Below, one piece after another: positions 4,123 through 35,268 of a stretch of 64,000 bases of DNA. Position 1 is the first letter of the stretch. Every line of letters starts with the position of its first letter. The stretch lies in the NCBI RefSeq assembly GCF_002854065.1, contig NZ_CP024147.1; one strand, written 5' to 3'. Position numbers and translations under genes: made by a program. Under the pieces are notes generated by a model. It searched no databases, was not told the origin of the DNA, and was given only the letters and a program-made list of their open reading frames with translations. The stretch is from Escherichia coli. GTDB taxonomy: Bacteria; Pseudomonadota; Gammaproteobacteria; Enterobacterales; Enterobacteriaceae.

Positions 4123-5034
4123 TTAAATCCCCGCCCCCTGACTAAAATGCTCTTCCCCAAACACCCCGGTGGAAAGGTAGCGATCGCCACGATCGCAGAT
4201 GATCGCTACCACCACCGCACCAGGGTTAGCTTTTGCCACCCGCAGTGCTCCGGCAACCGCGCCGCCGGAGCTGACGCCACAGAATATTCCTTCCCGCACC
4301 GCCAGTTCGCGCATGGTGTTTTCCGCATCGCGCTGATGAATATCCAGCACCTCATCCACCAGAGAAGCGTTGAAAATCCCCGGCAGATATTCCGCAGGCC
4401 AGCGGCGAATGCCGGGAATGCTACTGCCCTCTTCCGGCTGCAGGCCAACAATGGTCACCGGTTTGGATTGTTCGCGCATAAAGCGTGAAACGCCGGTGAT
4501 AGTGCCGGTTGTTCCCATGCTGGAGACAAAATGGGTAATGCGCCCGCCAGTCTGCTGCCAGATTTCCGGCCCGGTAGTGGTGTAATGGGCGTAAGGGTTA
4601 TCGGGATTGTTGAACTGATCGAGCAGCTTTCCTTCACCACGATTCGCCATCTCCAGCGCCAGATCGCGCGCACCTTCCATGCCCTGCTCTTTGGTGACAA
4701 GAATCAGTTCCGCACCATAAGCACGCATCGCCGCACGGCGTTCCTGACTCATGTTGTCGGGCATCAGCAATTTCATGCGATAGCCTTTAAGCGCGGCAAT
4801 CATTGCCAGCGCAATGCCGGTGTTACCACTGGTGGCTTCGATTAACACATCACCCGGTTTAATTTCCCCGCGCTTTTCCGCCTCGACGATCATCCAAAGC
4901 GCAGCACGATCTTTCACCGAACCTGCCGGGTTATTGCCTTCCAGTTTTAACCACACTTCACTGCCGTTATTCGGCCCCATTCGCTGCAACTTCACCAGAG
5001 GCGTATTGCCTATTGTTTGTTCTAATGTACTCAC
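4123..5034 (-). CDS. cysM: Cysteine synthase B (O-acetylserine sulfhydrylase B)
   Basis: PLP-dependent cysteine synthase fold; start refined to the GTG (VSTLEQTIGNTPLV) inside the longer track ORF; adjacent to cysAWUP. Confidence 0.9.
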   Translation of the reverse strand: MSTLEQTIGNTPLVKLQRMGPNNGSEVWLKLEGNNPAGSVKDRAALWMIVEAEKRGEIKPGDVLIEATSGNTGIALAMIAALKGYRMKLLMPDNMSQERRAAMRAYGAELILVTKEQGMEGARDLALEMANRGEGKLLDQFNNPDNPYAHYTTTGPEIWQQTGGRITHFVSSMGTTGTITGVSRFMREQSKPVTIVGLQPEEGSSIPGIRRWPAEYLPGIFNASLVDEVLDIHQRDAENTMRELAVREGIFCGVSSGGAVAGALRVAKANPGAVVVAIICDRGDRYLSTGVFGEEHFSQGAGI

Positions 5035-19252: not shown

Positions 19253-20305
19253 TCACCCCCATTCCCGCATCCGCTGATGCAACGTCAACGACGGCTTCTC
19301 GGCAAACAGCTGCTGGTAATCCGTGGCAAATTGCCCCAGATGCCAGAATCCCCACTGCATGGCGGCGTCTTTTACCGTTGTGCTTTGCGACCACGGGCTT
19401 ATCAGTTCGCGGCGCACGGCGTTCAGGCGAATGCGTTTCAGCCACGCGTTTGGGCCAATGCCTAAAATAGCGTGAAACGCGTTTTGTAGCGTGCGGCGGC
19501 TGACATGCAGTTGATTACACAAATCCAGCACCGTCACCGGTTCGGACATGTTTTCCAGCACATATTCACGGGCGCGGGAAAGTAATCTACGGTAACTCTG
19601 ATGACTGATGCTTTCCGCCGTCACCATTGGCTGTGCTTCTTCCAGCATCGCCCCCATCGCCATTAGCAAATTATCCCCCAGCACTTTTCGCACTGCAGGC
19701 TGATGGAGATTTTCCGGGTTCTCGCAAAACGTCGCCAGCGCCTGTTGGACAAAGCCCCACAGCGCGGCTTTATGCTGCTCTTTCACTTCCAGCGCCGACT
19801 GGCTACGCAGCATATGTAATACCCGATCCGGATTATGCAAAAAGTTAGCCTGACGGGTGATGACATCTTCAGAAAGCACTACGCCCAGGATCGTGTAATC
19901 GTCCGGCGTACTTAATTCAAACTCGGTTCCACCGGGGCGCGTCGCTATTTCTGCGCTTCCCAGACATTGCGAACCGATAAATCCCTGCTCACCGCGCGTC
20001 GCCGGAATGCCAAACCAGAACGAGTTCGGCCAGACCAGGCACGACTGACGCAGCGCCAGACCGGTGTATTCACGAAAAACCTGAATATCATCGAGTAGAA
20101 TTTCCGTAAATTCACCATGAAACTTGCCCGGATGCAGCTGATCGTAAATCTGCTGCCAGGCGGTAATCGTTAAAGCATGTTCATAGACATCCGTTGTCTG
20201 TCGTTGATGAACATTATCCACTTCGACCTTCGGCGTGAGCTTCAGGTTTTCGGGTAAGGGTTCATGATAAAGATGGTGCAAATTGGCTGTACGGGTCTTT
20301 TTCAT
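19253..20305 (-). CDS. eutR: AraC-family activator of the eut operon
   Basis: 350-aa ORF with C-terminal AraC-type HTH; last gene of the eut cluster. Confidence 0.9.
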
Positions 20306-20350
20306 GATGTTAATGCCGGGTGTTGTAGGACACCCGGCACCTCCGACAGG

Positions 20351-20854
20351 TTAATGGGGCTTGAGACGATAACGACTACTGCGTTTACGTAACGTCCCGG
20401 CAGAAAAGAGCTGTTCGAGCGCATTTCTGGCTTTTTCCAGCGGCCAGCCAAAGTGGGCAGCCACTTCTCCTGCCGTCATTCCCTGACGTACTGATGTTAA
20501 CAGCGCCAACAACTCGTCAGCAGATTCCGCGACGATAACTGGCGCGTCGGGTTCCTTTACGGGTTGCTTCGGCTGGCGGTTAAAGCCAGTAACCAGCCAC
20601 TGGGTGTCATCGTCTGGCCGACCGATCTCCTTACGGCTGATGACACGCCCGGTACGCATCGCGGCAGCACAACCTGCGTCCAGCGCAGCACGACACGCCG
20701 CCAGATCGCCTTCCACCACCAGCGTTAAGCGACCAGGGTCAAGCACTTCGTGACTGAGCAGACAAACGTTAGCTGCTTTGAGCATGGCCGCTGCATCTAT
20801 CGCAGCGGCCATGCCGTCCACTTCCAGCAATCCCAGTGCATTGATCATCGGCAA
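20351..20854 (-). CDS. eutK: Ethanolamine-utilisation microcompartment shell protein EutK
   Basis: N-terminal BMC-domain-like sequence (ALGLLEVDGMAAAIDAAAMLKAANV) plus C-terminal extension; synteny. Confidence 0.85.
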   Translation of the reverse strand: MPMINALGLLEVDGMAAAIDAAAMLKAANVCLLSHEVLDPGRLTLVVEGDLAACRAALDAGCAAAMRTGRVISRKEIGRPDDDTQWLVTGFNRQPKQPVKEPDAPVIVAESADELLALLTSVRQGMTAGEVAAHFGWPLEKARNALEQLFSAGTLRKRSSRYRLKPH

Positions 20855-20860
20855 CCTCCA

Positions 20861-21520
20861 TTACGCACGCTGGATTGGATTACGCGCGATTTCCAGCACT
20901 GCATCGGTAAAGGCGTTACAGGCCGCTTTACACGCTGCCTGGCTACCGGTTAAAAATGCTGCCGAGTAGTTAGTTTCAGACGGTGGCGGGACATAGGTCA
21001 CCAGCTGTACGTCGGCAGATTTCAACGCTGCATCAATGCCGTAGGTCGCTTCCAGCGGCGGTGCCACCAGATACGCCATCGGATCGCCAAGCGTGATCCC
21101 GGCGGTTGATGAGAGATAAGAACCGGTACGCGAAACTACATGTGCCAGGAATGCCGTATCTTGCGCATCATTAGCCCACTGGAAAGCAGCGCCATTTTCA
21201 ATATGCGCAACCATCGCATCCAGACCGGCACGCACTTCCGCCGGGTTTGGCCCACCAAGCATAATCAGTACTTCACCGGCAGTCGGTGACGGGCCGTGTG
21301 CAGCGCCCGCATACAGCGAGCGGCCATACACCACTTCTACCATCGCTTGTTTGGTCGCTTCGTCAGCCGCAATGTAGGTTACGTCATCGGAATCAGCAGA
21401 AATCAGCCCGAGGCTACGAATATGCGGCGGCAATTTCAGTTCACGCGCAAAATCGGCGTTAACGGAGGCAATCACCCGCATAGCGGTGACAGACGGTCGA
21501 ATAAAATCTAAAGCTGGCAT
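20861..21520 (-). CDS. eutL: Ethanolamine-utilisation microcompartment shell protein EutL
   Basis: 219-aa tandem-BMC-type protein between eutC and eutK. Confidence 0.9.
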
Positions 21521-21529
21521 GATGCCTCC

Positions 21530-22417
21530 TTATCGGGTCATGTTGATGCCGGATGCTTTCTGCTCCAGCATACGTTTCGCCAAATCCACAATGACGGCTG
21601 CGGCTTCAACCGGCGGCGTGCCGCCCTGGTGAATGTTAGAGATACAGGTGCGATCGGCCTCAACGGTGGTCGCCATACGCGGCGAGTAAACGGCGTAGCA
21701 GGAGAGGCTTTCTGACTGACCCAACCCCGGACGTTCGCCCACCAGCAGGATCACTACTTTCGCGCCGAGGATCTCACCGATCTGATCTTCAATCTTCACG
21801 CGACCATAACGAACAAAGAATGGTGTACCGACTTTCAGCCCGGCCTGTTTCAGCCCCGCCATCAGCGGTGGCAGGATCTCTTCGTAGTTCACGGTGATCG
21901 CATCAGTTGACAGGCCATCAGAAATAACGACCTGTACGTCCGGATTAGCAACACACTGTGCTTTCAGCGCTTCAACAGCTTCTGCACACAGGCGGCGGCC
22001 CATATCCGGGCGAGTCAGGTAGAGATTTTTGTCGCTAATTTCAGAGCGTACTTCCAGCAAGCCCTGCGCTTTCACCCACTCTTCCGGCACTTCTTTAAGT
22101 ACGGTATCTTTCGAACGAGAGTGATCGGCCAGGAAACGCAGCAACGCCTGGGTACGCGGACGCGGACCGGCACGACCGGTACAAACGCGGGCCACGGTGC
22201 TGCGACGCAGTTCTGTTAACACATCCGCACGATGTGGGTTTTCAACACCAATCCACGCTTTTGCTTCCGCAGAACCTAAATCCAGCGCACAGCTTTCCGA
22301 GGTCACCGGTGCCGCACAGGTGGTAGTGGCGCACTTTGCTTCTGACGGCGCGGGGGCCGTTTGTCCCATTGACGCCATCACGCTGCGTACAATTTCTTCA
22401 ATCTGTTTTTGATCCAT
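21530..22417 (-). CDS. eutC: Ethanolamine ammonia-lyase small subunit
   Basis: 295-aa ORF downstream of eutB. Confidence 0.9.
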
Positions 22418-22437
22418 GATGTGTTATCTCCGCGTCA

Positions 22438-23799
22438 TCAGAAGAACAGTGACGGATCGCCCGCCCGTTTGATCAAGCGACCGTTTGCCATAATGCCCAT
22501 GCTTTCCAGCCAGCGTTCAAACTCCGGTGACGGGCGCAGGTTGAGTAACTGACGCACAGTGGCAGTGTCGTGGAAGGCGGTGGTCTGGTAGTTGAGCATG
22601 ATGTCATCGCCCAACGGCATCCCCATGATGTAATTGCAGCCTGCGGTGGCGAGCAGGATCATCAGGTTTTCGTTGAGGTTCTGGTCAGCGTCAGCGTGGT
22701 TGGTGTAACAGCAGTCACAGCCCATAGAGATGCCGCTCAGCTTGCCCATAAAGTGATCTTCTAAGCCCGCACGGATAATCTGGCGGTCGTTGTAGAGATA
22801 CTCCGGCCCAATAAAGCCGACCACGGTGTTGACGATAAACGGATCGTAATGACGCGCCAGCCCATAGTTACGTGCTTCCATCGTCACCTGGTCTGCGCCG
22901 AAGTTAGCGCCAGCGGATAGCGCTGAACCTTGTCCGGTTTCGAAGTAGAGGCAGTTTTCCCCGGCGATACGGTTGAACTCTGCACCCACTGCGCGCGCTT
23001 CGTCGAGCATCGCCAGTTCCACGCCAAACTCTTTCAGCCCTTTTTCACTGCCACAGATACTCTGGAAAATCAGCCCGCCTGGTGCGCCACGACGAATCGC
23101 TTCGATCTGGGTGGTGACGTGCGCCAGTACGCAGCCCTGAGTTGGGATGTTGAATTTGTCGATCACGCCATAGATGGTGTCCAGCACGCGGCTTAAGTTT
23201 TCCACGTCGTCAGTCACCGGGTTAACGCCGATCACCGCATCGCCCACCCCGAAGGAAAGCCCTTCGTAGATTTGCGCGGCGATACTTTGCACGTCGTCAC
23301 GGGTGTCATTTGGCTGCAAACGGGCGCTGAAGGTGCCCGGAATACCGATGGTGGTATTGGCCTTTTTGATTACCGGCATTTTCTTCGCGCCGTAGATCAG
23401 GTCCGCGTTGGAGCAAATCTTCGCTATCGCCGCGACCACTTCCGAGGTCAGCCCTTTGCGGGTAAAGGTAATGTCGTCCACGCTGGTTTCATCGCTCAGC
23501 ACATACTCACGCAGTTCGCTGATGCTCCAGTTTTTAATCTGGTTGTAGGCCGTTTCGTTAACATCGTCCTGAATCAGCCGCGTCACGCAGTCATCTTCAT
23601 AGGCAATCACCGGATTATTGCGGATGTCCGCTACGGTCATTTCCGACAACACCTGCTTTGCCGCCACGCGCTCCTGTGAACTTGCCGCTGCAACGCCTGC
23701 CAGCACATCCCCCGAACGCAGTTCGTTGGCTTTAGCCAGCACCTCTTTTACATCCTTAAACTGATATACATTGCCGAACAATGTGGTCTTTAGTTTCAT
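22438..23799 (-). CDS. eutB: Ethanolamine ammonia-lyase large subunit
   Basis: 453-aa ORF of the EutB family; first eut gene retained in this window. Confidence 0.9.
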   Translation of the reverse strand: MKLKTTLFGNVYQFKDVKEVLAKANELRSGDVLAGVAAASSQERVAAKQVLSEMTVADIRNNPVIAYEDDCVTRLIQDDVNETAYNQIKNWSISELREYVLSDETSVDDITFTRKGLTSEVVAAIAKICSNADLIYGAKKMPVIKKANTTIGIPGTFSARLQPNDTRDDVQSIAAQIYEGLSFGVGDAVIGVNPVTDDVENLSRVLDTIYGVIDKFNIPTQGCVLAHVTTQIEAIRRGAPGGLIFQSICGSEKGLKEFGVELAMLDEARAVGAEFNRIAGENCLYFETGQGSALSAGANFGADQVTMEARNYGLARHYDPFIVNTVVGFIGPEYLYNDRQIIRAGLEDHFMGKLSGISMGCDCCYTNHADADQNLNENLMILLATAGCNYIMGMPLGDDIMLNYQTTAFHDTATVRQLLNLRPSPEFERWLESMGIMANGRLIKRAGDPSLFF

Positions 23800-23986
23800 A
23801 AGTCGTTCCCTCAGGAAGAAGTGATGAGTAACATTTCTTCCAGCATTCGAACAATTCTATTTCATCGTTAGCCCTTGTCCTGTAAGGTAATTGTCTTAAC
23901 ACGCCCGTTATTCATCATGCCGAACGCAACCGAACGCGCCGGATACATGATCGGGTTTATCCAGTCGTTATGTCGAGGTATCCGGT

Positions 23987-25192
23987 TTGAGCAAGACACC
24001 ACTCACAGCAAAGGCCATCGCAGCCGCGCAGCCAAAAGACAAGCCCTATAAACTCACCGATTCACTGACGCCAGGACTGTTTTTGCTGGTGCATCCCAAC
24101 GGCAGCAAATACTGGCGATTCAGGTATTGGTTGAATAAACGAGAGTTTTTGCAGGCCATTGGTGTTTACCCGCTAATCACACTCAAAGAAGCACGCAGAC
24201 GCGCCACAGAGAGCCGATCTCTGATTGCTAATGGAATTAATCCAGTGGAAGAAGCACGCAAGGAAAAAGCCATTGATGCGCTCAACATGGCGGCAGGTTT
24301 TAAGACGGTAGCGGAGGACTGGCTGGCTACCAGGGTCAGCGGGTGGTCAGAGTCCTACACGAAACAGGTTAGATCGGCACTGGAAAAAGATGTTTACCCC
24401 GTGCTGGGGAAGCGGTCAATTGTCGATATAACGGCCCGTGACGTGCTGGAATTGCTTCAGAAGAAAGAGCGTACCGCACCGGAACAAGCCAGGAAGCTAC
24501 GCCAGCGTATCGGGGAGATCTTCAAATTTGCCGTTATCACCGAACTGGTGGCAAGAAATCCGGTTGCAGATCTGAACACAGCACTAAAAGCCCGCCGTCC
24601 GGGCCACAACGCATGGCTGCAAATTAACGAAATTCAGGCGTTCTATGAAGCACTTGAGAGAGCCGGGAGCGTCCAGATTCAGACGGCAATACGTTTGCTC
24701 ATATTGAGCGCTCTAAGGACGGTGGAACTGCGTAAAATGCGCTGGGAATGGGTTAACCTGGAAGACGCGATCATCACCCTACCCGCTGAAGTCATGAAGG
24801 CCCGTCGCCCGCATGTGGTCCCGCTATCACGGCAGGCGGTAGAGCTATTGCAGGACCAGTTTACTCGCACCGGATACAGCGCTTTCGTCTTCCCTGGTCG
24901 ATTCATGGATAAGCCCTTGTCTGCCAGCGCGATACTGAAAGCCCTGGAGCGTATCGGATACAAGTCGATAGCCACAGCACACGGCTGGCGTACAACGTTC
25001 AGCACGACGCTTAACGAGTCCGGCAGGTACTCACCAGACTGGATTGAAATCCAATTGGCCCACGTCCCGAAGGGTGTACGCGGTGTATATAACCAGGCGG
25101 CCTATCTCAAACAGCGCCGTCAAATGCTTCAGGACTACGCCGACGCCATTGATTCAATACTGGCTGGTGAAGGTAATCCGCTGGAACCGTGA
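23987..25192 (+). CDS. intZ: P4-type tyrosine integrase of a prophage remnant (TTG start)
   Basis: 401-aa ORF with N-terminal P4-integrase arm motif (KLTDSLTPGLFLLVHPNGSKYWRFRYW) and C-terminal tyrosine-recombinase core; K-12 has intZ next to eutB. Confidence 0.8.
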   Translation: MSKTPLTAKAIAAAQPKDKPYKLTDSLTPGLFLLVHPNGSKYWRFRYWLNKREFLQAIGVYPLITLKEARRRATESRSLIANGINPVEEARKEKAIDALNMAAGFKTVAEDWLATRVSGWSESYTKQVRSALEKDVYPVLGKRSIVDITARDVLELLQKKERTAPEQARKLRQRIGEIFKFAVITELVARNPVADLNTALKARRPGHNAWLQINEIQAFYEALERAGSVQIQTAIRLLILSALRTVELRKMRWEWVNLEDAIITLPAEVMKARRPHVVPLSRQAVELLQDQFTRTGYSAFVFPGRFMDKPLSASAILKALERIGYKSIATAHGWRTTFSTTLNESGRYSPDWIEIQLAHVPKGVRGVYNQAAYLKQRRQMLQDYADAIDSILAGEGNPLEP

Positions 25193-25198
25193 ACTATA

Positions 25199-25224
25199 AG
25201 GCCGGATTCGTCCGGCTTTTCTTT
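25199..25224 (+). terminator. Rho-independent terminator after the integrase gene
   Basis: Stem gccgga / tccggc with ttcg loop followed by ttttcttt. Confidence 0.5.
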
Positions 25225-25418
25225 CGCTAATTATTCCACTATTCCAATTAAGTGGAATAAATTATTCAATATCAAAAACTTACATCAATATTGCAACAAT
25301 AAAAACGGTGGCTTATGATCAGATCATGATTTTCGGTATGTGAACAGCAAAAACAAGAAGCCCGGAAAGGCGGCAACCAATCCGGGCGATATGGGAAAAG
25401 AGATTAGGAGGTTTCCCC

Positions 25419-26186
25419 ATGCGTAATAGTTTAGCAGTTCGCTTTAGCTTGCAGCAAGGCGAAGAATTATCACAGGAATATCAATTCATCAAATACGAAG
25501 AAGCGCCGGAACAGGTGCAAATAGCTTTTGATGATCAGCACTACGGCAACACTATCCGCTACGACGGTAAAAAATGGTTTCTCAATCCGGTAACAAATGC
25601 CATTCACGTATGTCAAATCATTACGCCAGTAAATAACAGCGCGGATAACGATTCGGCTATTGACGCTGAACTGGTGACAGAACCACTACCGCCACCGCCG
25701 CCAGTACAAGAAAGCGATGTAAAACCCGACGCCATCGATCTGACAGCAGAAGCCAGAGAGCGCAAACAACCGAAGCCGGAACAACCGCAAGCCAAGGATA
25801 ACAAACAGTGGCACGGTAACACGGCGTATCTGAATACGTTTGCTTGTCATCTTCATGAAGTGCTACCACAGGCCATCTATAGCACATGGTGCGACAAACA
25901 AACGGCGGCACACTTCCACCTGCTTTACGCGCTTTGCTACCTGGCAAGCTACGAAAACAAAGATGAAGGTATCGAGCTTGGCGAGGTGTTATATGGTGCT
26001 GAAAAGATCACAAAGGGCGGCGTAGTACCTGGTTTCCATATGGCCCGATCAACGTTCGATATCAAGATTAACGAGCTTGAACAGTGGGGATTAATCAAGG
26101 TAACACGAGGTAAGAAACGTAAGGACGGGCAAGGCAACTTGCCGAACAGTATCAAACTGAACTTTAAGCCGTACAGTTTAAAATAA
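25419..26186 (+). CDS. Hypothetical prophage protein, possibly a winged-helix replication-initiator-like protein
   Basis: 255-aa ORF behind a strong SD (aggagg); proline/acidic linker then a basic C-terminal segment (ELEQWGLIKVTRGKKRKDG) resembling winged-helix initiators; weak inference. Confidence 0.55.
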   Translation: MRNSLAVRFSLQQGEELSQEYQFIKYEEAPEQVQIAFDDQHYGNTIRYDGKKWFLNPVTNAIHVCQIITPVNNSADNDSAIDAELVTEPLPPPPPVQESDVKPDAIDLTAEARERKQPKPEQPQAKDNKQWHGNTAYLNTFACHLHEVLPQAIYSTWCDKQTAAHFHLLYALCYLASYENKDEGIELGEVLYGAEKITKGGVVPGFHMARSTFDIKINELEQWGLIKVTRGKKRKDGQGNLPNSIKLNFKPYSLK

Positions 26187-26194
26187 TCACACTA

Positions 26195-26220
26195 GGCGGG
26201 CAATGTTCCCGCCTTTTCTT
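26195..26220 (+). terminator. Rho-independent terminator after the 255-aa ORF
   Basis: Stem ggcggg / cccgcc with 7-nt loop followed by ttttctt. Confidence 0.5.
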
Positions 26221-26243
26221 TGCCTCAATCCTATAAAATTCAC

Positions 26244-26282
26244 ATCCCGAAAATCGGTATCTGGGTATCCCGAAAATCGGTA
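26244..26282. repeat. Two perfect 16-bp direct repeats ATCCCGAAAATCGGTA with 23-bp period
   Basis: Copies at 26244-26259 and 26267-26282, immediately followed by an AT-rich tract. Confidence 0.7.
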
Positions 26283-27668
26283 AGTAATAATAAGTATTAT
26301 CCTTAAAGGTAAAAACCATATAAGTAAGATCTATCTCTTCAAGAATGTATATATTCACTACGTTCATATATACATGAGAAGTTTCCCTTTCATGCAGTCA
26401 AAACTACATTCATCAGCATCGCTTTCTGCGCTCTCCTTCCCAGCAAGCTGGAAAGGCCCATTCACTCACGCACAACCTGCAAACCAGACCAACATACCAT
26501 CATGGCGATTCGTTCATGGGTAGCGCGGGTATATCTCAAAGGGTGATTTCTTCTTGGTGGACCTTCGGAAGACTTCGAGCAATCGCCAGCTCAAAAGACG
26601 GTCTGGCAGTGATGGTTATCATCGACAGCATTGAGCGCTACCGCGCCAACTTACAGCAGCAGGATAACTACCGAAGGAAAACCCACGCCGAAAGGGATTG
26701 ACTCACTGCAAAGCCAATGGGTTTTATCAGCGTATACAGACCAGACAGGAAACAGCAGCAAAGCAGCGTATAGCCAGGTGCAGACAGTACCATCACACAA
26801 CGCACAGCAGGCTGAGGTGAACACTCAAACAGGTTTATCCCCGCAGCCGACCAACGCAAACCATCCTGACCGTGCCAAATTCGAACGGAATGGTGCCTGT
26901 AACGCGATGAACACATATAACCGCTTACTTGCTTACCTGAAAACTTCACGTCGCCACAGAGCGATTTAGACGCATTATAATTGATGCGATTTCATTAAAT
27001 TTTCACCAGACACCGGAACAACGCCGATTAATCCAGGAATGGATTCATCGACATGCGCCGCTTTCCCCGCAGAACAGTCTCGCCTGAATAGTCTCACCAA
27101 CCAGATTTCAGATTGTCCAATCAGGCACGTCTCATTAAACGACAGAATGCGGCCTACAACGCCATCGCTGCCGATCTCGTTTGAGCAAGGTGCTGAGACT
27201 GAATGACGGACGCCCACTCCTCAGAGCTGAGGAATCGCCACACAGAACGCTGAGATCTGATATTACCGCCGCACCATTCCACGCCAGACGAATCAATCTA
27301 ATCACACCTGAGCAAATGCATTGCCAAAAATTAAGGCCGTCAGAATGCGTTATATTGCGTTTAAACGGCATCTAATTTTAATTAGTTTTGATGTGGTGAT
27401 TGCAGGCAAAAAAAATCCCGCCGGAGAGAGCGGGGAAGTGAAATCAATCGTTGTAGTTATAGATCACATTTTGAGTAAGGGTTACCAGCCCTTGAGTAAT
27501 ATTATCCCTGTATTACGTGAGATGCGCAATTATTTTTTGCTAATTAAAAGTTTTGTAAACATTACAGAATATCCCCTTTCCCTATATGGTAAAAGATGTG
27601 AAACAGGGACATGAGGAATATAATATTAAGTATCAACAGTAATGTTGGTCTTTAATTTCATTCAGGGC

Positions 27669-27710
27669 GCGGTGAGGGTTTTCCCATATTTTTCCTCACC
27701 GCTACTTTTT
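27669..27710 (+). terminator. Terminator/attenuator-like hairpin in the leader of the AlpA-like gene
   Basis: Perfect 9-bp stem gcggtgagg (27669-27677) / cctcaccgc (27694-27702), 16-nt loop, T5 run at 27706-27710. Confidence 0.4.
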
Positions 27711-27721
27711 GAGGTGAGAAC

Positions 27722-27913
27722 ATGAATGATAGCGAATTAATGACGGTGAGCGAGGTAGCCGCTTTATTCGGCGTTACCCGACGCACTATATTCCGCTGGC
27801 TGAACAAGATTAAAGGTTGGCCCGTTCCGGTTACTCCGGTCGGTGCACGAATTAAGTTTATCCGATCTGAGATTTTGGAATTCTATAAAAACAAAGGCGC
27901 TCGCCACCAATGA
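27722..27913 (+). CDS. AlpA/excisionase-family helix-turn-helix prophage regulator
   Basis: 63-aa ORF MNDSELMTVSEVAALFGVTRRTIFRWLNK; HTH typical of prophage AlpA/Xis-type regulators; SD gaggtga 6 nt upstream. Confidence 0.7.
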   Translation: MNDSELMTVSEVAALFGVTRRTIFRWLNKIKGWPVPVTPVGARIKFIRSEILEFYKNKGARHQ

Positions 27914-27989
27914 AAACAGCTACTGAGATTATCAAATAACCTATTGATTTAATAAGCTAGCTACCGCAATTTCTGAAGGAATAGGCAGC

Positions 27990-28316
27990 ATGAAAATCAA
28001 AGCAAACACAATTAAAGAAATAACATCAATCAAAGTAAAAGGAGCAGATGCCATGCATTCATTAGACAGTTATTTTCAGCGCACGACAGCCCCTAAATCA
28101 GCCGCCCAGGAACGCCGTGAGGAATTCCAGGAAAAAGTGATGCGTTCTGCTGATTATATTGCGGACAAGTTCGTGGAAACGGTTCGGCCACTTGTTGATG
28201 AAGTAGCTGATAAACTTCAGTCTGAAATGCCGGAAGACATGGAAGGCACTGCAAAGGCGCGACTCCTTTTTGAATTAAGTCGTCGTTTCGGCGTGTCAAT
28301 AAGCACTTTTAAATAA
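27990..28316 (+). CDS. Hypothetical prophage protein (108 aa; may start at internal Met)
   Basis: ORF in co-directional tight cassette; no recognisable motif. Confidence 0.45.
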   Translation: MKIKANTIKEITSIKVKGADAMHSLDSYFQRTTAPKSAAQERREEFQEKVMRSADYIADKFVETVRPLVDEVADKLQSEMPEDMEGTAKARLLFELSRRFGVSISTFK

Positions 28317-28333
28317 TCGGAGGAGAAAAGACA

Positions 28334-28876
28334 ATGGACGCATTTGATGTACTGACAAACAAAGGCGATGAACTGGTAGCACAGCGTGATAAAACCGCCA
28401 ACGAAGGGGAACGCGCACTGTTAAATAAGCAGATTAAAGCGATCCGTATGGCCCAGTTTAAATTAATCAGCAATGAAGTTATCGAAATAATTAAACCGCA
28501 GATCCCACAAATCGTTGCTGACGCTATTAAAGCCGCCGGACTGGAGAAACGCATTGCCGGGCTGAAAACGAACGCAGAGAAAATGGAGATGCACAAACAG
28601 AGCGGTGCTCCGACTCCGGATGAGTACTTCTCACCGGATGCTGAGTTTATGGCGCAGGTTGAGGAACGTCTGGGTAGCTGTCTCACCGAGGAACAGCGTC
28701 GCTATTTTGATGGAGTGGATAGTTCGGCAGGTATTGACCTGAACTCGTGTTTCGGTCGTGAAATTGAGCATTTTGATGCCGCCCCGTCTATGCCGGAGCC
28801 AGAACCAGAAATGGCCGCCGATCCTGAAGCTGAGCAACGGAAACGCGTATTCAATGCGATAGGGATTCGGTACTGA
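28334..28876 (+). CDS. Hypothetical prophage protein (180 aa) with acidic C-terminal tail
   Basis: Strong SD (ggagga) 7 nt upstream; predicted helical N-terminal half and PEPEPE-containing acidic tail; no recognisable motif. Confidence 0.55.
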   Translation: MDAFDVLTNKGDELVAQRDKTANEGERALLNKQIKAIRMAQFKLISNEVIEIIKPQIPQIVADAIKAAGLEKRIAGLKTNAEKMEMHKQSGAPTPDEYFSPDAEFMAQVEERLGSCLTEEQRRYFDGVDSSAGIDLNSCFGREIEHFDAAPSMPEPEPEMAADPEAEQRKRVFNAIGIRY

Positions 28877-28927
28877 TCGGATAAAAGAAAGCCGGGAATT
28901 ACCCCGGCTGACTTAACAATGTGACCA

Positions 28928-29302
28928 ATGAACAAATCGGACAAGACAAACAGGATAAGCAGTCTCGAAACAATGTTCGGGAACTATATTAGCACAAGTC
29001 CGGAGAAAATCATCATGTTGGCACTACGCATCATGCAGGGCATCGCTAAGACCCTCGCAGAACATGTCTTAGACCTGAAACATTCGCCACTGAGCAAACA
29101 GGCCATGAAGCGCCAAACGCTTCGTCTGTGGGCTGAATATTCGCTTGGAACTATCAATAAAATCATCGACATGAAATCGGGGCCGAGCAACCAGAGCGCG
29201 GAGGAAATGGAGTTCATCAGGCGTTTAATTCTCATTCGCAGAGATATTCATAGCCAGTTACACAGCGTGGGAATCGATATTAATGATGGGACGGGCGATT
29301 AA
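28928..29302 (+). CDS. Hypothetical prophage protein (124 aa)
   Basis: ORF in same cassette; basic, helical; no recognisable motif. Confidence 0.5.
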   Translation: MNKSDKTNRISSLETMFGNYISTSPEKIIMLALRIMQGIAKTLAEHVLDLKHSPLSKQAMKRQTLRLWAEYSLGTINKIIDMKSGPSNQSAEEMEFIRRLILIRRDIHSQLHSVGIDINDGTGD

Positions 29303-29340
29303 TTTTCGGACAAGTACAATGCGCGCGCGAGGAGCTGAAC

Positions 29341-29571
29341 ATGAAGCAAGATATTGCAGACAGGCTGGAGATACTCGAAGGCCAGCGGGCAGAAGCGAAA
29401 CAACTACGTAAGCAGGCCAGAAGAGCGCACAGGAACTACGAAGCAGAATCACTGACCGCTTTCATCAACTTCACAAACCGTTGCATCCAGGAGTGTTACA
29501 GGGAGGATGCAGAAAACTGGCTGGATTCATTGCCAGAACAGACTCTGCATGAACTGAACGGCGACCAGTAA
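29341..29571 (+). CDS. Hypothetical prophage protein (76 aa, coiled-coil-like)
   Basis: SD gaggag 7 nt upstream of ATG; Arg/Glu/Gln-rich helical sequence. Confidence 0.45.
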   Translation: MKQDIADRLEILEGQRAEAKQLRKQARRAHRNYEAESLTAFINFTNRCIQECYREDAENWLDSLPEQTLHELNGDQ

Positions 29572-29859
29572 ATAAATCCAGTACGTTTCCCGCAGTGCGC
29601 ATAACGTACATTATGTGAAAAACGATATGGATGTATATCAGTATTGATTTCATTGAGAAAACTGGGTTTTCAGTGGCACAGACAAAGAAGCATAGCTGAT
29701 ACAGCTTTATAAGCCATTGATTCTATTAAGTGATGTTTTTTGTGATTGGTTGAAGCAAACCAAAACACGATGCCACTGAAGCGTTAATAAACTGTTTCAA
29801 TGTGAAATTATTAGAGTAAAGAACAATTTGGAGGGTCCGCAAACGCGGATAACAATATC

Positions 29860-32040
29860 ATGAGTGGAAATCTCGGGACCATATACTACGAGGTCGATGC
29901 CCGCACTGGGAAACTTCTTATCGCGCAACAGCAGGCGGAAGAGGCGTTCGATCGCATTGAACGAGGAGCGCGGAAGGCTGATAGCGGCGTCAAAAAGTTA
30001 AATACGCAGATGACTAAAACATCAGCCGCAGTCAAAACCAACCTTTCCCCGGCAATCCGTAACGCATCATACCAGATCGCAGACCTTGCCACTCAATTGC
30101 AGATGGGCGGTAATGCGCTTCAGGCGTTCGCTGTGCAGGGTGCGCAGTTATTAGCTGGCTTTGGCACGATGGGCGCGGTAGCTGGCGCGGTGCTGGCTAT
30201 CGCTGGCGCTATGGGTGGAAGCCTGGCACAAGGCGCTGATAGTGCAGCCGGATCGGTTGAGTATCTGGACAAGGCGATCACCAAACTGAACGAGGTCATA
30301 GCTGTAAATGAACAGGGCGTGACGGTGATGAGTGATAGTTACGCCAGACTTTCTAAGGTTAACGCTGAAGTAGCGAAACAGATGCGGAACATGGCTGAAA
30401 TTCAGGCAATTGCAGCACTGCGTGACCTGAAAGAACAGGCAAGCCAGGCACAGGGGGAAATGTCGTCATTCTGGCGCAGCTTGCAGGGTGGTAAAGCTGA
30501 CGCAGCAGCAGCAGCACAGGCACTTGATGATCTTGGAATCACAACCAACGACTACAAAGAGGCGATAGCCATACTGAACGCCAATCAGCCGGATACACAG
30601 GCGCAAATGGCAACGCTAGCCAAATCCGTGATGTATGTTGGAGAGCAATATGATCTGACCAACCAGCAAGCATACGAATTTATACGCGCACTAAATAAGG
30701 CCGCGACAACGAAAACGCCGGAAGCCATGCAGGAGCTATCTGGCTTCATGCAGGTTTTGCTTCAGGATACCGAAAACGGTAACGAGGCATTCCGTGAACT
30801 GGCTATCAAATTCGTCGATGCACAAACCAAAGGCGCAATGTTGGAGGACCAACTAAACCGACTGAAAGGCGCTATTAGTGACGCAGCCACAGAAGCCAGA
30901 AACGCAAACTTTACCACTATGCTCAACACCGTCGCCGCACGCCTGGCAACCATTGAGCAAGGTTGGGAGGCAGGCGTTAGGATGCAGATGAAAGCCCAGG
31001 GCTACACTGAAGAGCAGATCGATGAATATGTGAACATGGAAACGGCGTACCGTGATGCAAAAGCCGCTTTGGACGAGAAGAACAAGGCCGACCGTGAAGC
31101 TATTGCGCTATCCAAACGCCAGGCCGCAGAAGCAGCCCGCAAGGCAAAACAGGAAGAAGCTGAAGCACAACGCAAGGCCAAACAGTTAGCCGCGCAGAAG
31201 GAGCAGGCAGGACGCTTTACGCAGCAAGTAATGACGGAATACCTGACGACCGTAGATCCGGCAACAGGCAAGGCGTTTAACCCTGCCGCACAAGTAGAAA
31301 TGCAGGAGCAGCAGAAGAAAGCGGCGCTGGATAAATACAGACAGTTGGGCGTCCTGGATGAACAGCAGTACCAGAACACGCTAACCGCCATCCAGAAAAC
31401 CGCGTCAATGCGCCGCCAGCAAATCATCAAAGACGAGGCCGACACGTTATTCAACAATCAGCAACAGTTGATCGGCACATTTGGCGATTTCTTCGGTGAA
31501 CTGTCTGGAGTCATAGCAGACGGTGCAGGTGAGCAAAACGCGGCATATCAAGCGCTATTTGCTGTGCAGAAGGGTTTTGTATTGGCATCAGCAGCTTTAA
31601 GCCTTCAGAAAGCGCTTGCTGAGGCAAACGCCTTGCCTTTCCCGGCTAATCTTCCGGCCTATGCGCAAGCTATGTCAGCAGGTACGCAGATCATTTCAGC
31701 TATTCGTGGAATAGCTTTCGGTGGCGGACGCTACAACGGCGGCGCGGTTGGTGCTGGCAACCTGTACCGCGTGGGTGAACACGGTAAGCCTGAGATATTC
31801 AAGGCGAACAATGGCAGCCAGTACATGATCCCAGGTGATAACGGTCGCGTGATAAGTAATCGTGACATTGGCGGCGGTGGCGGCGTAACAATCAACAGCC
31901 CGATCACCATTAACACTACGAATGGCTTCAGTGATGAAGACTCAAGGCGTCTTGAGGAAGCGATGAAGCGCGTAGCTATGGGCGTTTGCAGGCAGGAGTC
32001 AACCAGACCGGGAGGAATGTTAGCCCCGCGCCGTCGTTAA
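29860..32040 (+). CDS. Phage tail tape-measure-like protein
   Basis: 726-aa Ala/Gln-rich mostly helical ORF with glycine-rich hydrophobic N-terminal segment, long coiled-coil region (AEAARKAKQEEAEAQRKAKQLAAQKEQ) and C-terminal Gly-rich motif GGGRYNGGAVGAGNLYRVGEHG resembling the lambda gpH C-terminus as recalled. Confidence 0.65.
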   Translation: MSGNLGTIYYEVDARTGKLLIAQQQAEEAFDRIERGARKADSGVKKLNTQMTKTSAAVKTNLSPAIRNASYQIADLATQLQMGGNALQAFAVQGAQLLAGFGTMGAVAGAVLAIAGAMGGSLAQGADSAAGSVEYLDKAITKLNEVIAVNEQGVTVMSDSYARLSKVNAEVAKQMRNMAEIQAIAALRDLKEQASQAQGEMSSFWRSLQGGKADAAAAAQALDDLGITTNDYKEAIAILNANQPDTQAQMATLAKSVMYVGEQYDLTNQQAYEFIRALNKAATTKTPEAMQELSGFMQVLLQDTENGNEAFRELAIKFVDAQTKGAMLEDQLNRLKGAISDAATEARNANFTTMLNTVAARLATIEQGWEAGVRMQMKAQGYTEEQIDEYVNMETAYRDAKAALDEKNKADREAIALSKRQAAEAARKAKQEEAEAQRKAKQLAAQKEQAGRFTQQVMTEYLTTVDPATGKAFNPAAQVEMQEQQKKAALDKYRQLGVLDEQQYQNTLTAIQKTASMRRQQIIKDEADTLFNNQQQLIGTFGDFFGELSGVIADGAGEQNAAYQALFAVQKGFVLASAALSLQKALAEANALPFPANLPAYAQAMSAGTQIISAIRGIAFGGGRYNGGAVGAGNLYRVGEHGKPEIFKANNGSQYMIPGDNGRVISNRDIGGGGGVTINSPITINTTNGFSDEDSRRLEEAMKRVAMGVCRQESTRPGGMLAPRRR

Positions 32041-32163: not shown

Positions 32164-32667
32164 TTATTGATAGTGTTTTATGTTCAGATAATGCCCGATG
32201 ACTTTGTCATGCAGCTCCACCGATTTTGAGAACGACAGCGACTTCCGTCCCAGCCGTGCCAGGTGCTGCCTCAGATTCAGGTTATGCCGCTCAATTCGCT
32301 GCGTATATCGCTTGCTGATTACGTGCAGCTTTCCCTTCAGGCGGGATTCATACAGCGGCCAGCCATCCGTCATCCATATCACCACGTCAAAGGGTGACAG
32401 CAGGCTCATAAGACGCCCCAGCGTCGCCATAGTGCGTTCACCGAATACGTGCGCAACAACCGTCTTCCGGAGACTGTCATACGCGTAAAACAGCCAGCGC
32501 TGGCGCGATTTAGCCCCGACGTATCCCCACTGTTCGTCCATTTCCGCGCAGACGATGACGTCACTGCCCGGCTGTATGCGCGAGGTTACCGACTGCGGCC
32601 TGAGTTTTTTAAATGGCGGAAAATCGTGTTGAGGCCAACGCCCATAATGCGGGCGGTTGCCCGGCAT
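32164..32667 (-). CDS. insB: IS1 InsB reading frame (expressed as InsAB transposase by -1 frameshift)
   Basis: 167-aa ORF overlapping the insA 3-prime end in the -1 frame, classic IS1 organisation. Confidence 0.85.
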
Positions 32668-32988: not shown

Positions 32989-35268
32989 TTACAGCGGTTG
33001 GGTTTGCGCTTCAACCACGGCCAGCGCCACCATGTTGACGATACGACGTACCGATGCGATCGGCGTTAACACGTGAACCGGTTTCGCCACGCCCATCAGC
33101 ACCGGACCGACAGTCACACCTTCCGAGCTGGAAACGCGCAGTAAGTTGTAACTAATGCGGGCAGCTTCCATGTTTGGCATTACCAGAATATTGGCAGAAC
33201 CTTTCAAAGGGCTGTCCGGCATACGGTCGTTGCGAATCGCTTCCACCAGCGCTGCATCGCCGTGCATTTCACCATCAATCATCAGTTCTGGCGCACGTTC
33301 CCTGACCAGTTCCAGCGCCTGACGCATTTTGCTCGACGACGGACAGTCAGAAGAACCAAAGTTGGAGTGCGACAACAGAGCAACGCGCGGCTCAATACCA
33401 AAACGACGGACAGTTTCTGCCGCCATCAAGGTGATCTCCGCCAGCTCTTCTGCGTCTGGTTCGTCATTGACGTAGGTATCGGCAATAAAGGTGTTACCAC
33501 TCGGCAGCAGCAGCGCGTTCATTGCACCTGCGGTGTGAACGCCATCGCGATAACCAAAGACATTTTTCACCACGCTAAAATGTTCATGATAATCACCCAC
33601 CGTACCGCAAATCATTGCATCGGCTTCGCCACGCTGAACCATGATCGCGCCGATCACTGTCGGGTTACTGATCAACGCCCGCTGCGCCTGTTCCTGAGTG
33701 ACGCCGCGACGCTTCATGATCTGGAAGTATTCGGTCCAGTACTCTTTAAAGCGCGGATCGGATTCGTTATTGACGATCTCAAAATCAACGCCCGCTTTGA
33801 TCTGCAAGCCCAGTTTCTGAATGCGCATTTCGATCACGTTCGGACGACCGATAAGGATCGGTTTCGCCAGTCCCAGCGTTACCAGTTCCTGAGTGGCATG
33901 TAGAACGCGCGCCTCTTCCCCTTCCGGCAGAACTACGCGCTTCGGCGCTTTGCGAGCCTGGGAGAAAATCGGCTTCATAAACAGGTTGGTTTTGTAAACG
34001 AACTCAGTCAGCTTGTCGATGTAGACGTCGAAATCAGCAATCGGACGCGTCGCCACGCCCGACTCCATCGCCGCTTTCGCGACCGCAGGAGCGATCTTAA
34101 CGATCAAGCGCGGATCAAACGGTTTTGGAATGATGTATTCCGGACCAAAGCTCAGATCCTGATCGCCATACGCTGAAGCCACCACTTCGCTCTGTTCCGC
34201 ATGGGCCAGTTCTGCAATCGCGCGTACCGCCGCCAGTTTCATCTCTTCGTTGATGGCGGTTGCGCCAACGTCCAGCGCGCCACGGAAGATGAACGGGAAG
34301 CAAAGGACGTTGTTGACCTGGTTTGGATAGTCAGAACGACCGGTGCAGATGATGGCATCCGGACGCACTTCTTTCGCCAGCGGCGGCAGAATTTCCGGTT
34401 CCGGGTTCGCCAGCGCCAGGATCATTGGCGCTCGAGCCATTTTCTTCACCATTTCCTGGGTCAGCACTTTCGGGCCGGAACAGCCGAGGAAAATATCCGC
34501 GCCTTCAATCACATCATCGAGGGTACGTTTGCCGTCATCCACTACCGCATATGCGGCTTTGGTTTCCGCCATGTTTGGCTCACGGCCCTGATAGATAACG
34601 CCTTTTGAATCGCAAACCACGATGTTATGTTTTTGCAGACCCAGCGCGACCAGCAGGTTCATACAGGCGATTGCTGCAGCACCCGCGCCGGAAACCACCA
34701 TACGCACGTCAGAGATGTTTTTCTCCACCACGCGCAAGCCGTTGAGGATGGCGGCAGTGCTGATGATTGCCGTGCCGTGCTGATCGTCGTGGAATACCGG
34801 AATATTCATCCGCTCGCGCAGTTTCTGTTCAATATAGAAACATTCTGGCGCTTTAATGTCTTCGAGGTTGATTCCGCCGAAGGTCGGTTCGAGCGCAGCG
34901 ACGACTTCAATAAATTTGTCCGGGTCGAGTTCATCAACTTCAATGTCAAATACATCAATCCCGGCGAATTTCTTAAACAGAACGCCCTTGCCTTCCATCA
35001 CCGGTTTGCCTGCCAGCGCGCCAATGTTGCCTAACCCCAGCACCGCCGTACCGTTAGAGATCACCGCCACCAGGTTACCGCGCGCGGTATATTTGTAGGC
35101 TTTTAACGGGTCTTTTTCGATTTCAAGACAAGGTGCGGCAACGCCTGGTGAGTAGGCCAGCGCCAGATCGCGCTGCGTTGCCAGAGGCTTGGTTGGAGAA
35201 ACCTGGATTTTCCCTGGAACTGGAAATTCATGGAAATCAAGTGCACTTTGTTTTAACTGGTCATCCAT
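32989..35268 (-). CDS. maeB: NADP-dependent malic enzyme
   Basis: 759-aa ORF with N-terminal malic enzyme domain and C-terminal phosphotransacetylase-like domain. Confidence 0.95.

Follow-up and report, generated by a model that had tools for sequence, protein, structure and literature searches.

Within a window of 64,000 nucleotides (nt) of Escherichia coli DNA (contig NZ_CP024147.1 of assembly GCF_002854065.1), a small integrative island resembling CPZ-55, the cryptic prophage that occupies the same site in E. coli K-12, adjoins eutB and contains a stretch of about 1.3 kb (26390–27720) with no convincing protein gene. We read this gap as a mosaic non-coding spacer between an origin-like iteron module and the control region of an alpA-like operon, with a convincing, previously uncatalogued candidate gene for a small RNA (sRNA) at its right end; for the explanation as a whole, including the mechanism proposed below, we put the probability at roughly 0.72. 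The spacer would consist of four parts: a block of ~450 bp that has been kept by descent and evolves as non-coding DNA, whose open reading frames (ORFs) would be chance products of a T-poor strand; a slot that holds differing cargo genes in relatives; the 3' stump of a gene for a protein of ~150 amino acids (aa); and a ~90-nt minus-strand sRNA gene with its own promoter and intrinsic terminator (Table 1). The initial annotation of this DNA had proposed the absence of a gene, a coding sequence split by a frameshift and a small leftward RNA; the first and third of these proposals hold up, and the split gene does not.

The predicted sRNA would be read from the minus strand, divergently from its neighbour, the alpA-like gene. 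A terminator-like hairpin followed by a U8 run had been noticed on this strand at 27408–27435, and a consensus scan finds it at exactly that place. The short leftward transcript that the hairpin was taken to imply is supported by a predicted sigma-70 promoter and by compensatory changes in both hairpins of the RNA. In this promoter the −35 hexamer appears as TTGCGC, TTGCAC, TTGTAC or TTGCGA among the versions compared, the spacer is always 17 nt long while its sequence diverges (ATCTCACGTAATACAGG versus CCATCACATAACGGCGC, among others), and the −10 hexamer GATAAT, with the ATT that follows it, is invariant. The consensus scan missed it, the −35 hexamer matching at only three of six positions. 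The minus-strand promoter offered by the scan itself (TTTACA/AAAAAT, 27559–27532) is conserved in two variant types only, and TTGCGC/GATAAT is preferred. The RNA would have the architecture of a base-pairing sRNA, with a stem-loop at the 5' end and a conserved single-stranded stretch, after which a U-rich segment leads to a terminator that ends in a long tail of 7–9 U. The single-stranded stretch holds two motifs, CUCAAAAUGUGAUCU and AUAACUACAACGAU, between which about half of the versions carry a 4-nt insertion. GATAATATT is identical in 29 of 29 distinct versions, as are the second motif and the GUGAUCU core of the first, and 34 nt of the sRNA are invariant while the flanks diverge.

The case for this gene rests on comparison with relatives, because the bare patterns are unremarkable on their own: five terminator-like sites occur in 3.2 kb, where 3.4 would be expected by chance. 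Versions were collected from E. coli genomes at 72–100% identity and, with the pattern GTGATCT-N0-4-ATAACTACAACGAT, from 25 metagenome contigs; eight of these contigs carry eutB at 96.8–100% identity to that of the window and are therefore assigned to E. coli. The minus strand of 27270–27725 was aligned with relatives, and 29 distinct versions of the sRNA were compared. The 5' stem reads AAGGG/CCCTT in the window and GAGGAT/ATCCTC, AAGGATT/AATCCTT, CGAGGG/CCCTCG or TGAGG/CCTCA elsewhere, the terminator stem CCCGC/GCGGG is replaced by CCAGC/GCTGG in some versions, and every variant folds individually into the same two hairpins. Five of the 12 base pairs have changed on both sides, 90% of the cells are paired versus 29–44% when the partner is slid, and the covariation score of 0.184 compares with 0.078 ± 0.014 for shuffled alignments, none of 500 reaching the observed value. 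In the terminator helix (helix 2), 97% of the cells are paired and a C-G pair is replaced by A-U in two versions. The sRNA, its promoter and the divergent control region are 97–100% identical in pairs of islands whose alpA genes show a synonymous divergence (dS) of 0.29–0.36. The segment shows the conservation pattern of a transcribed, structured RNA, and from this comparison we infer that it is transcribed.

The sRNA is present in 187 of 5426 complete E. coli genomes, in one copy per genome and always in the chromosome. A covariance model built from 20 versions scores it at 105.8 bits, as the only hit in the window, and finds no copy in CPZ-55 of K-12 or in the related loci L003 and L007. Searches of a phage collection (blastn), of viral contigs and of a one-genome-per-species collection (exact patterns) returned nothing but one chance match, in a Chloroflexi coding region. 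An Rfam scan of 20000–32000 at E ≤ 1 gave only a sub-threshold hit, leaving the sRNA without a matching family. That hit, to GcvB (RF00022), reaches 19.9 bits (E = 0.8) where the gathering score is 42, and only its terminator part aligns confidently; the C4 model, to which the P4 CI immunity RNA belongs, has no hit at E ≤ 1 on either strand of the same interval. No paper containing the sRNA sequence was found in the literature library searched, and a search of the literature on sRNAs of CPZ-55, on sRNAs of alpA-carrying satellites and on intZ/eutB found nothing relevant. If expressed, the RNA would represent an uncatalogued sRNA family in about 3% of complete E. coli genomes and would provide a testable handle on how widespread, CPZ-55-related small islands control an alpA-type operon.

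Pairing with mRNA would be expected to proceed through the invariant single-stranded stretch, whose first motif contains an anti-Shine-Dalgarno-like CCUC/CUC. The divergent operon of all loci was searched for complements of this stretch. Wherever a relative has an HNH endonuclease gene with a start region of its own after the HTH (helix-turn-helix)/alpA-like gene, this start region reads ...ATCACATTT(T)GAGG-N8-10-ATG, a complement of CCUCAAAAUGUGAU that covers the Shine-Dalgarno sequence (start regions examined: L009, at 4648–4675, and L016, L027, L015, L047, L023 and L028). The complementarity extends over 14 of 14 nt in L016 and L027 and elsewhere comprises 9–10 bp and a further 5 bp (GAGGC/GCCUC) across one bulge; in four of the six loci tested it is the best compact duplex among the start regions of the locus. 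By our own count, chance would give ~1e-4 exact 14-nt matches of a 45-nt RNA to some 20 start regions, a figure to be read with the caveat that the HNH-carrying copies are related to one another. The most likely mechanism would be post-transcriptional silencing of the island's rightward (alpA/HNH) operon through occlusion of its ribosome-binding sites, making the sRNA an RNA equivalent of a repressor whose gene is divergent from its targets. In the window, which is HNH-less, it would act weakly on the alpA site (7 + 3 bp) or on a target outside the window. This silencing is our best guess, with modest support in the relatives and weak support in the window.

Several observations weigh against the gene or its proposed mode of action. 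The single-sequence fold of the sRNA is not unusual (z = −1.1), and the presumed transcription start is placed from the promoter position alone. The alignment used for the pair count was registered by hand on the AGG/CCT core, and its numbers lean towards structure, although the variant stems are readable directly in the unaligned sequences despite this hand-set register. The island can be maintained in the chromosome without the sRNA, as one related locus, L007, has lost 27232–27516. As to the targets, the HNH gene is absent from the window, and the site in the alpA start region, ACUUUUUGAGG, offers seven base pairs, a mismatch and three more base pairs and ranks 61st of 260. Duplex energies are no better than those of shuffled seeds, even in the HNH-carrying loci, no compensatory change is seen between the seed and the HNH site, and the second motif has no candidate target. 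A target search across the 64 kb by duplex energy and mismatch patterns yielded nothing beyond chance. One candidate, a pairing of −25.5 kcal/mol with minus-strand 27120–27200, was discarded as no better than shuffled seeds.

The sRNA might also work in cis, as an antisense regulator of rightward read-through (from the initiator gene and the ~150-aa gene) towards alpA, through interference with transcription and cleavage by RNase III, on the model of lambda OOP and P22 sar; this is compatible with the mosaic spacer and its sRNA gene rather than exclusive of it, and we consider it improbable. The upstream plus-strand genes have no convincing terminator before the sRNA gene, which is convergent with them, and RNA extended past them by read-through would pair with the sRNA without a mismatch. 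Antisense action of this kind needs no invariant sequence, yet 34 nt are held constant between diverging flanks, and all that is left of the upstream ~150-aa gene in the window is a stump, for which no promoter is identified. Just as tentative is the wider idea that CPZ-55-like islands are phage satellites kept quiescent by an RNA and not by a protein repressor, with a divergently transcribed, trans-acting sRNA that blocks the ribosome-binding sites of an alpA/HNH operon for induction and packaging, and with AUAACUACAACGAU directed at a helper-phage or host mRNA; if true, this second target would explain why the sRNA is invariant in islands that, as in the window, have lost the HNH gene.

It is very unlikely that 27408–27530 acts instead at the level of DNA, for example as a bidirectional terminator that shields the alpA operon and is combined with protein-binding sites, and that no regulatory RNA is independently transcribed from it: the invariant 34-nt stretch could bind protein and does hold a perfect CRP-type half-site (AAATGTGATCT), and in relatives the convergent ~150-aa gene has its stop codon ~30 nt before the hairpin, but no T run follows the hairpin on the plus strand, which would make for poor rightward termination, the 5' hairpin has wholly changed its sequence with its pairing kept, which fits selection on RNA and not on a DNA site, the promoter hexamers are conserved at a fixed spacing around a diverging spacer, and a CRP-type dyad would not survive the 4-nt insertion that half of the variants carry within the invariant stretch.

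The divergent control region contains a possible −10 hexamer for rightward transcription (TATAAT, 27619–27624, plus strand). A strong plus-strand hairpin, GCGGTGAGG...CCUCACCGC (27668–27703), is followed by UACUUUUU (to 27711), 12 nt before the alpA-like start codon; the leader from 27630 to 27730 folds at −31.3 kcal/mol (z = −3.2), and the fold is kept in all alpA-carrying relatives. The hairpin looks like an intrinsic terminator or attenuator; alternatively, its 3' arm could pair with the Shine-Dalgarno region GAGGUGAG. A direct repeat is also present on the plus strand, formed by ACATTTTGAG (27466–27475, antisense to the sRNA seed) and ACTTTTTGAG (27704–27713, before the alpA Shine-Dalgarno sequence); in the type-B variants each copy is longer by one base, inserted at the same position (a G in one copy, a C in the other). 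Pairing between the seed and the alpA leader, at 7 + 3 bp, is not claimed, the extra C of the type-B variants on both sides giving a C-C mismatch and no compensation.

Table 1. Positions in the window of the predicted sRNA gene, the parts of the gap and the neighbouring features of the island
Feature	Position	Strand	Details
Predicted sRNA, ~87–90 nt	27408–27497	−	From alignments, folds, pair counts and a covariance model
sRNA, probable start	27493–27497	−	Placed from promoter position
sRNA, 5' hairpin	27493–27489 / 27481–27477	−	
sRNA, conserved single-stranded stretch	27476–27436	−	
sRNA, terminator stem	27434–27417	−	CCCGC...GCGGG, 6 pairs, 5 of them G-C
sRNA, U8 tail	27415–27408	−	Stem followed by A (27416) and U8; A8 on the plus strand
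Predicted sigma-70 promoter of the sRNA	27501–27529	−	−35 TTGCGC, 27529–27524; 17-nt spacer; −10 GATAAT, 27506–27501
Divergent control region	27530–27721		Separates the sRNA promoter from the alpA-like start codon
C-rich sequence	26390–26554		Right of the iteron/AT-rich (origin-like) module; homologous in L005, L006, L007 and partly L002
Non-coding block	26555–27003		84–92% identity across islands with otherwise unrelated initiator genes and iterons
Variable slot	27004–27282		Filling in the window common to L006, L007 and L008
3' gene remnant	27283–27378	+	Last ~30 codons of a ~150-aa gene family with no assigned function; tblastn
intZ	23987–25192		Leftmost listed part of the island
yffL-like gene, 255 aa	25419–26186		Own terminator
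Two exact 16-nt iterons, ATCCCGAAAATCGGTA	26244–26259, 26267–26282		23 nt apart
alpA-like HTH_17 / excisionase-family gene	27722–27913	+	PF12728, E = 3e-8; phrog_66; TIGR01764

The remainder of the gap was split into blocks by BLAST against 12 related loci. RefSeq has no annotation across it in most relatives, with the one exception of an 89-aa hypothetical protein discussed below. None of the ORFs of 26390–27720 matches a family in Pfam or PHROGs, which bears out the earlier impression that the gap lacks a convincing protein gene; NCBIfam has no match for the frames of 26516–26969, and PADLOC and NCBIfam, run on the neighbouring genes, add no family for any gap ORF. The segment 26190–26717 travels with the yffL-like/iteron module, and its C-rich part (GC skew −0.43) is common only to relatives with the same yffL-like gene and iterons, the others having iterons of their own there. 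The variable slot is filled in relatives by a ~150-aa gene (L004, L009, L011, L017), by a 236-aa winged-helix gene (L002) or by short unrelated filler, and beyond it 27283–27720 is again widely shared. Deletions have removed 26718–26848 from L006 and L007, besides the loss in L007 described above.

The block between the C-rich sequence and the slot evolves as expected of non-coding DNA. By the Nei-Gojobori method, its ratio of non-synonymous to synonymous divergence (dN/dS) is 0.9–1.2 in the frame of the ORF, with similar values for the two remaining frames; in these sequence pairs the yffL-like gene has 0.13, alpA 0.10–0.13 (diverged pairs) and int 0.05–0.13. Compared with seven relatives, substitutions are spread evenly over the three codon positions with no codon periodicity, and the ratio of synonymous to non-synonymous codon changes of ~1:4 equals the random expectation. 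Insertions and deletions of a single nucleotide are frequent and scattered throughout, and new stop codons appear. RNAalifold, run on 26550–27010, detects no conserved RNA structure (−12.3 kcal/mol over 460 nt, with an unfavourable covariation term). By these measures the block is non-coding DNA kept by descent, and it possibly has some cis role next to the origin.

We nevertheless consider it unlikely that the block has a function in cis, within the island's origin of replication or for packaging, that would account for its persistence beside unrelated iteron and initiator modules. Its place is always behind the iterons and the AT-rich stretch, both in islands with the yffL-like gene and in those whose initiator-like gene is of the HTH_36 / phage O-like kind, and its divergence of 0.10–0.17 is lower than the dS of int (0.38–0.81) and alpA (0.29–0.36) in the same pairs. 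However, neighbouring ORFs are 99–100% identical in these pairs, and because segments differ in their recombination history a low divergence need not mean constraint; the two relatives without 26718–26848 lack part of the block, in which no repeats or conserved structure stand out.

The same stretch had been interpreted as one gene of 150–170 aa split by a frameshift, on the basis of two plus-strand ORFs, 26516–26701 (61 aa, ATG) and 26631–26969 (112 aa, TTG), which are indeed present and overlap in different frames. An intact homologous gene at 26500–27000 was looked for in relatives, and continuous ORFs of 151–161 aa that join both frames do exist in some of them (P0004, P0007, P0012, P0016; L021, L030), the middle part (AYTDQTGNSSKAAYSQVQ...) being open in many copies, but none is under purifying selection. 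Among 31 distinct DNA copies the open stretch varies from 53 to 160 codons, the upstream, N-terminal part is read in three frames, and the motif-bearing ORF is lacking in 18. A protein search with the 112-aa ORF gave 25 hits of 61–195 aa with differing ends and no domains; all named hits are E. coli 'hypothetical proteins', and one is an unnamed phage-metagenome call. The plus strand of the block is poor in T (AT skew up to +0.46), so stop codons would be rarer and long ORFs would arise easily by chance. These properties, together with a dN/dS of ~1 in every frame, the even use of codon positions and the lack of any Pfam, PHROG or NCBIfam match, leave the split gene unsupported, and a single frameshift-inactivated gene with intact copies in related elements is very improbable.

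A near-identical (98%) 'intact' protein of 155 aa, P0001, illustrates how such ORFs can mislead. It comes from contigs of at most 1.9 kb, and under the bacterial code (table 11) two in-frame TGA codons interrupt its gene at exactly the Trp positions of the protein, corresponding to 26544–26546 and 26619–26621 of the window; it is evidently a gene call that reads TGA as Trp. Its source DNA is L049 518–985 (Logan contig ERR10900750_5953), equivalent to 26502–26969 of the window, and the case is a caution against taking large protein collections as proof of intact ORFs. The many 'hypothetical proteins' called over 26500–27000 in metagenomes are not genes either.

A genuine coding remnant, detected by tblastn, lies further to the right, in the last part of the gap before the sRNA gene, and not at 26500–27000. 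It has 56% identity over 30–32 aa (E = 6e-7 and 2e-6) to residues 119–150 only, the C-terminal part, of proteins of relatives, in which intact genes of 150–151 aa are annotated just left of the hairpin (for example WP_001204667.1 and WP_001205730.1); the remainder of this gene is absent from the window. The annotated exception mentioned above, WP_001268866.1 (89 aa, 27345–27614, plus strand), is listed by RefSeq as a hypothetical protein in several genomes and lies antisense over the whole sRNA gene. Its frame is open in three of 31 sequence versions and broken in the other 28, because the length of the U run and the terminator loop vary, and the protein is almost certainly spurious.

Base-pairing sRNAs of the Hfq type are well known from enterobacterial prophages and islands and include DicF of the Qin prophage and the phage-encoded anti-sRNAs AgvB and AsxR of enterohaemorrhagic E. 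coli. The predicted island sRNA would resemble this class in its size of ~90 nt, sigma-70 promoter, 5' stem-loop, single-stranded seed, U-rich stretch and G+C-rich terminator with a U tail, and in its location in horizontally acquired DNA. In contrast to them, it has no sequence or covariance-model similarity to any Rfam family, and its seed complements a gene of the element itself (HNH, in relatives) and not a known host mRNA. The immunity RNAs c4 of phages P1 and P7 and CI of P4, an E. coli satellite with an alpA/vis-type regulator, form the C4 family of Rfam and are processed out of the transcript that they regulate. If the proposed silencing holds, the island would share with them the use of a small RNA that pairs near ribosome-binding or leader sequences, by which a mobile element silences its own lytic or induction genes, whereas the island sRNA would start at a promoter of its own, which faces away from the candidate target operon, and end at its own terminator, and it does not match the C4 model. 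SviR is a trans-acting sRNA of the Vibrio cholerae satellite PLE and a proposed regulator of genes of the element and possibly of its helper phage; the island sRNA, read as trans-acting and encoded by a putative satellite, would be comparable, but host and element family differ, there is no detectable homology, and CPZ-55-like islands are only putative satellites. The antisense RNAs OOP of lambda and sar of P22 overlap their target genes. Like these, the predicted sRNA is a short leftward RNA in a phage-type control region and convergent with an upstream gene, but it ends ~30 nt beyond the stop codon of that gene in relatives, and in the window the gene is a stump.

A further parallel is offered by the minimalist satellites known as PICMIs, in which large non-coding regions with small ORFs and pseudogenes were set aside as non-functional (PMC10803314). 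The island described here is likewise of the int-alpA type and has a long gene-poor stretch with non-conserved small ORFs, as that paper reports for PICMIs; unlike the regions set aside there, part of this stretch appears to hold a conserved sRNA gene.

E. coli CUWW06 carries a copy of the island at 99.9% identity, and 13P460A, NCTC 13148 and ATCC 43886 are further carrier strains. Downstream of the yffL-like gene, the iterons are followed by an AT-rich stretch with a perfect 10-nt palindrome, forming an origin-like module at 26244–26375. In related islands the place of the iterons is taken by distinct triple direct repeats, each island having its own and each paired with a different HTH protein; these proteins resemble phage O-like or DnaD-like replication initiators (HTH_36 / phage O-like). 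In some relatives the yffL-like gene is replaced by a toxin-antitoxin pair of the YafO family (L004 2943–3792, L009 1858–2707, L013 3705–4184), and the island's left arm, from intZ to the gap, is a hotspot for cargo. Rightward of the alpA-like gene follow several small ORFs, a 726-aa tape-measure-like gene, IS1 and then, directly, maeB. The tape-measure-like protein (29860–32040, plus strand; phrog_1538, E = 7e-103) has no other recognisable tail genes nearby and is an odd cargo for an island of 8 kb. IS1 lies at the right end of the island, with maeB directly after it (32164–32667 and 32989–35268, respectively), and the stretch of the ethanolamine operon from eutA to eutS, found after the island in K-12, is missing from both the window and CUWW06, presumably through an IS1-mediated deletion. 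Some of the related islands that carry the HNH gene also have a small-terminase-like gene, which points to a phage-satellite lifestyle.

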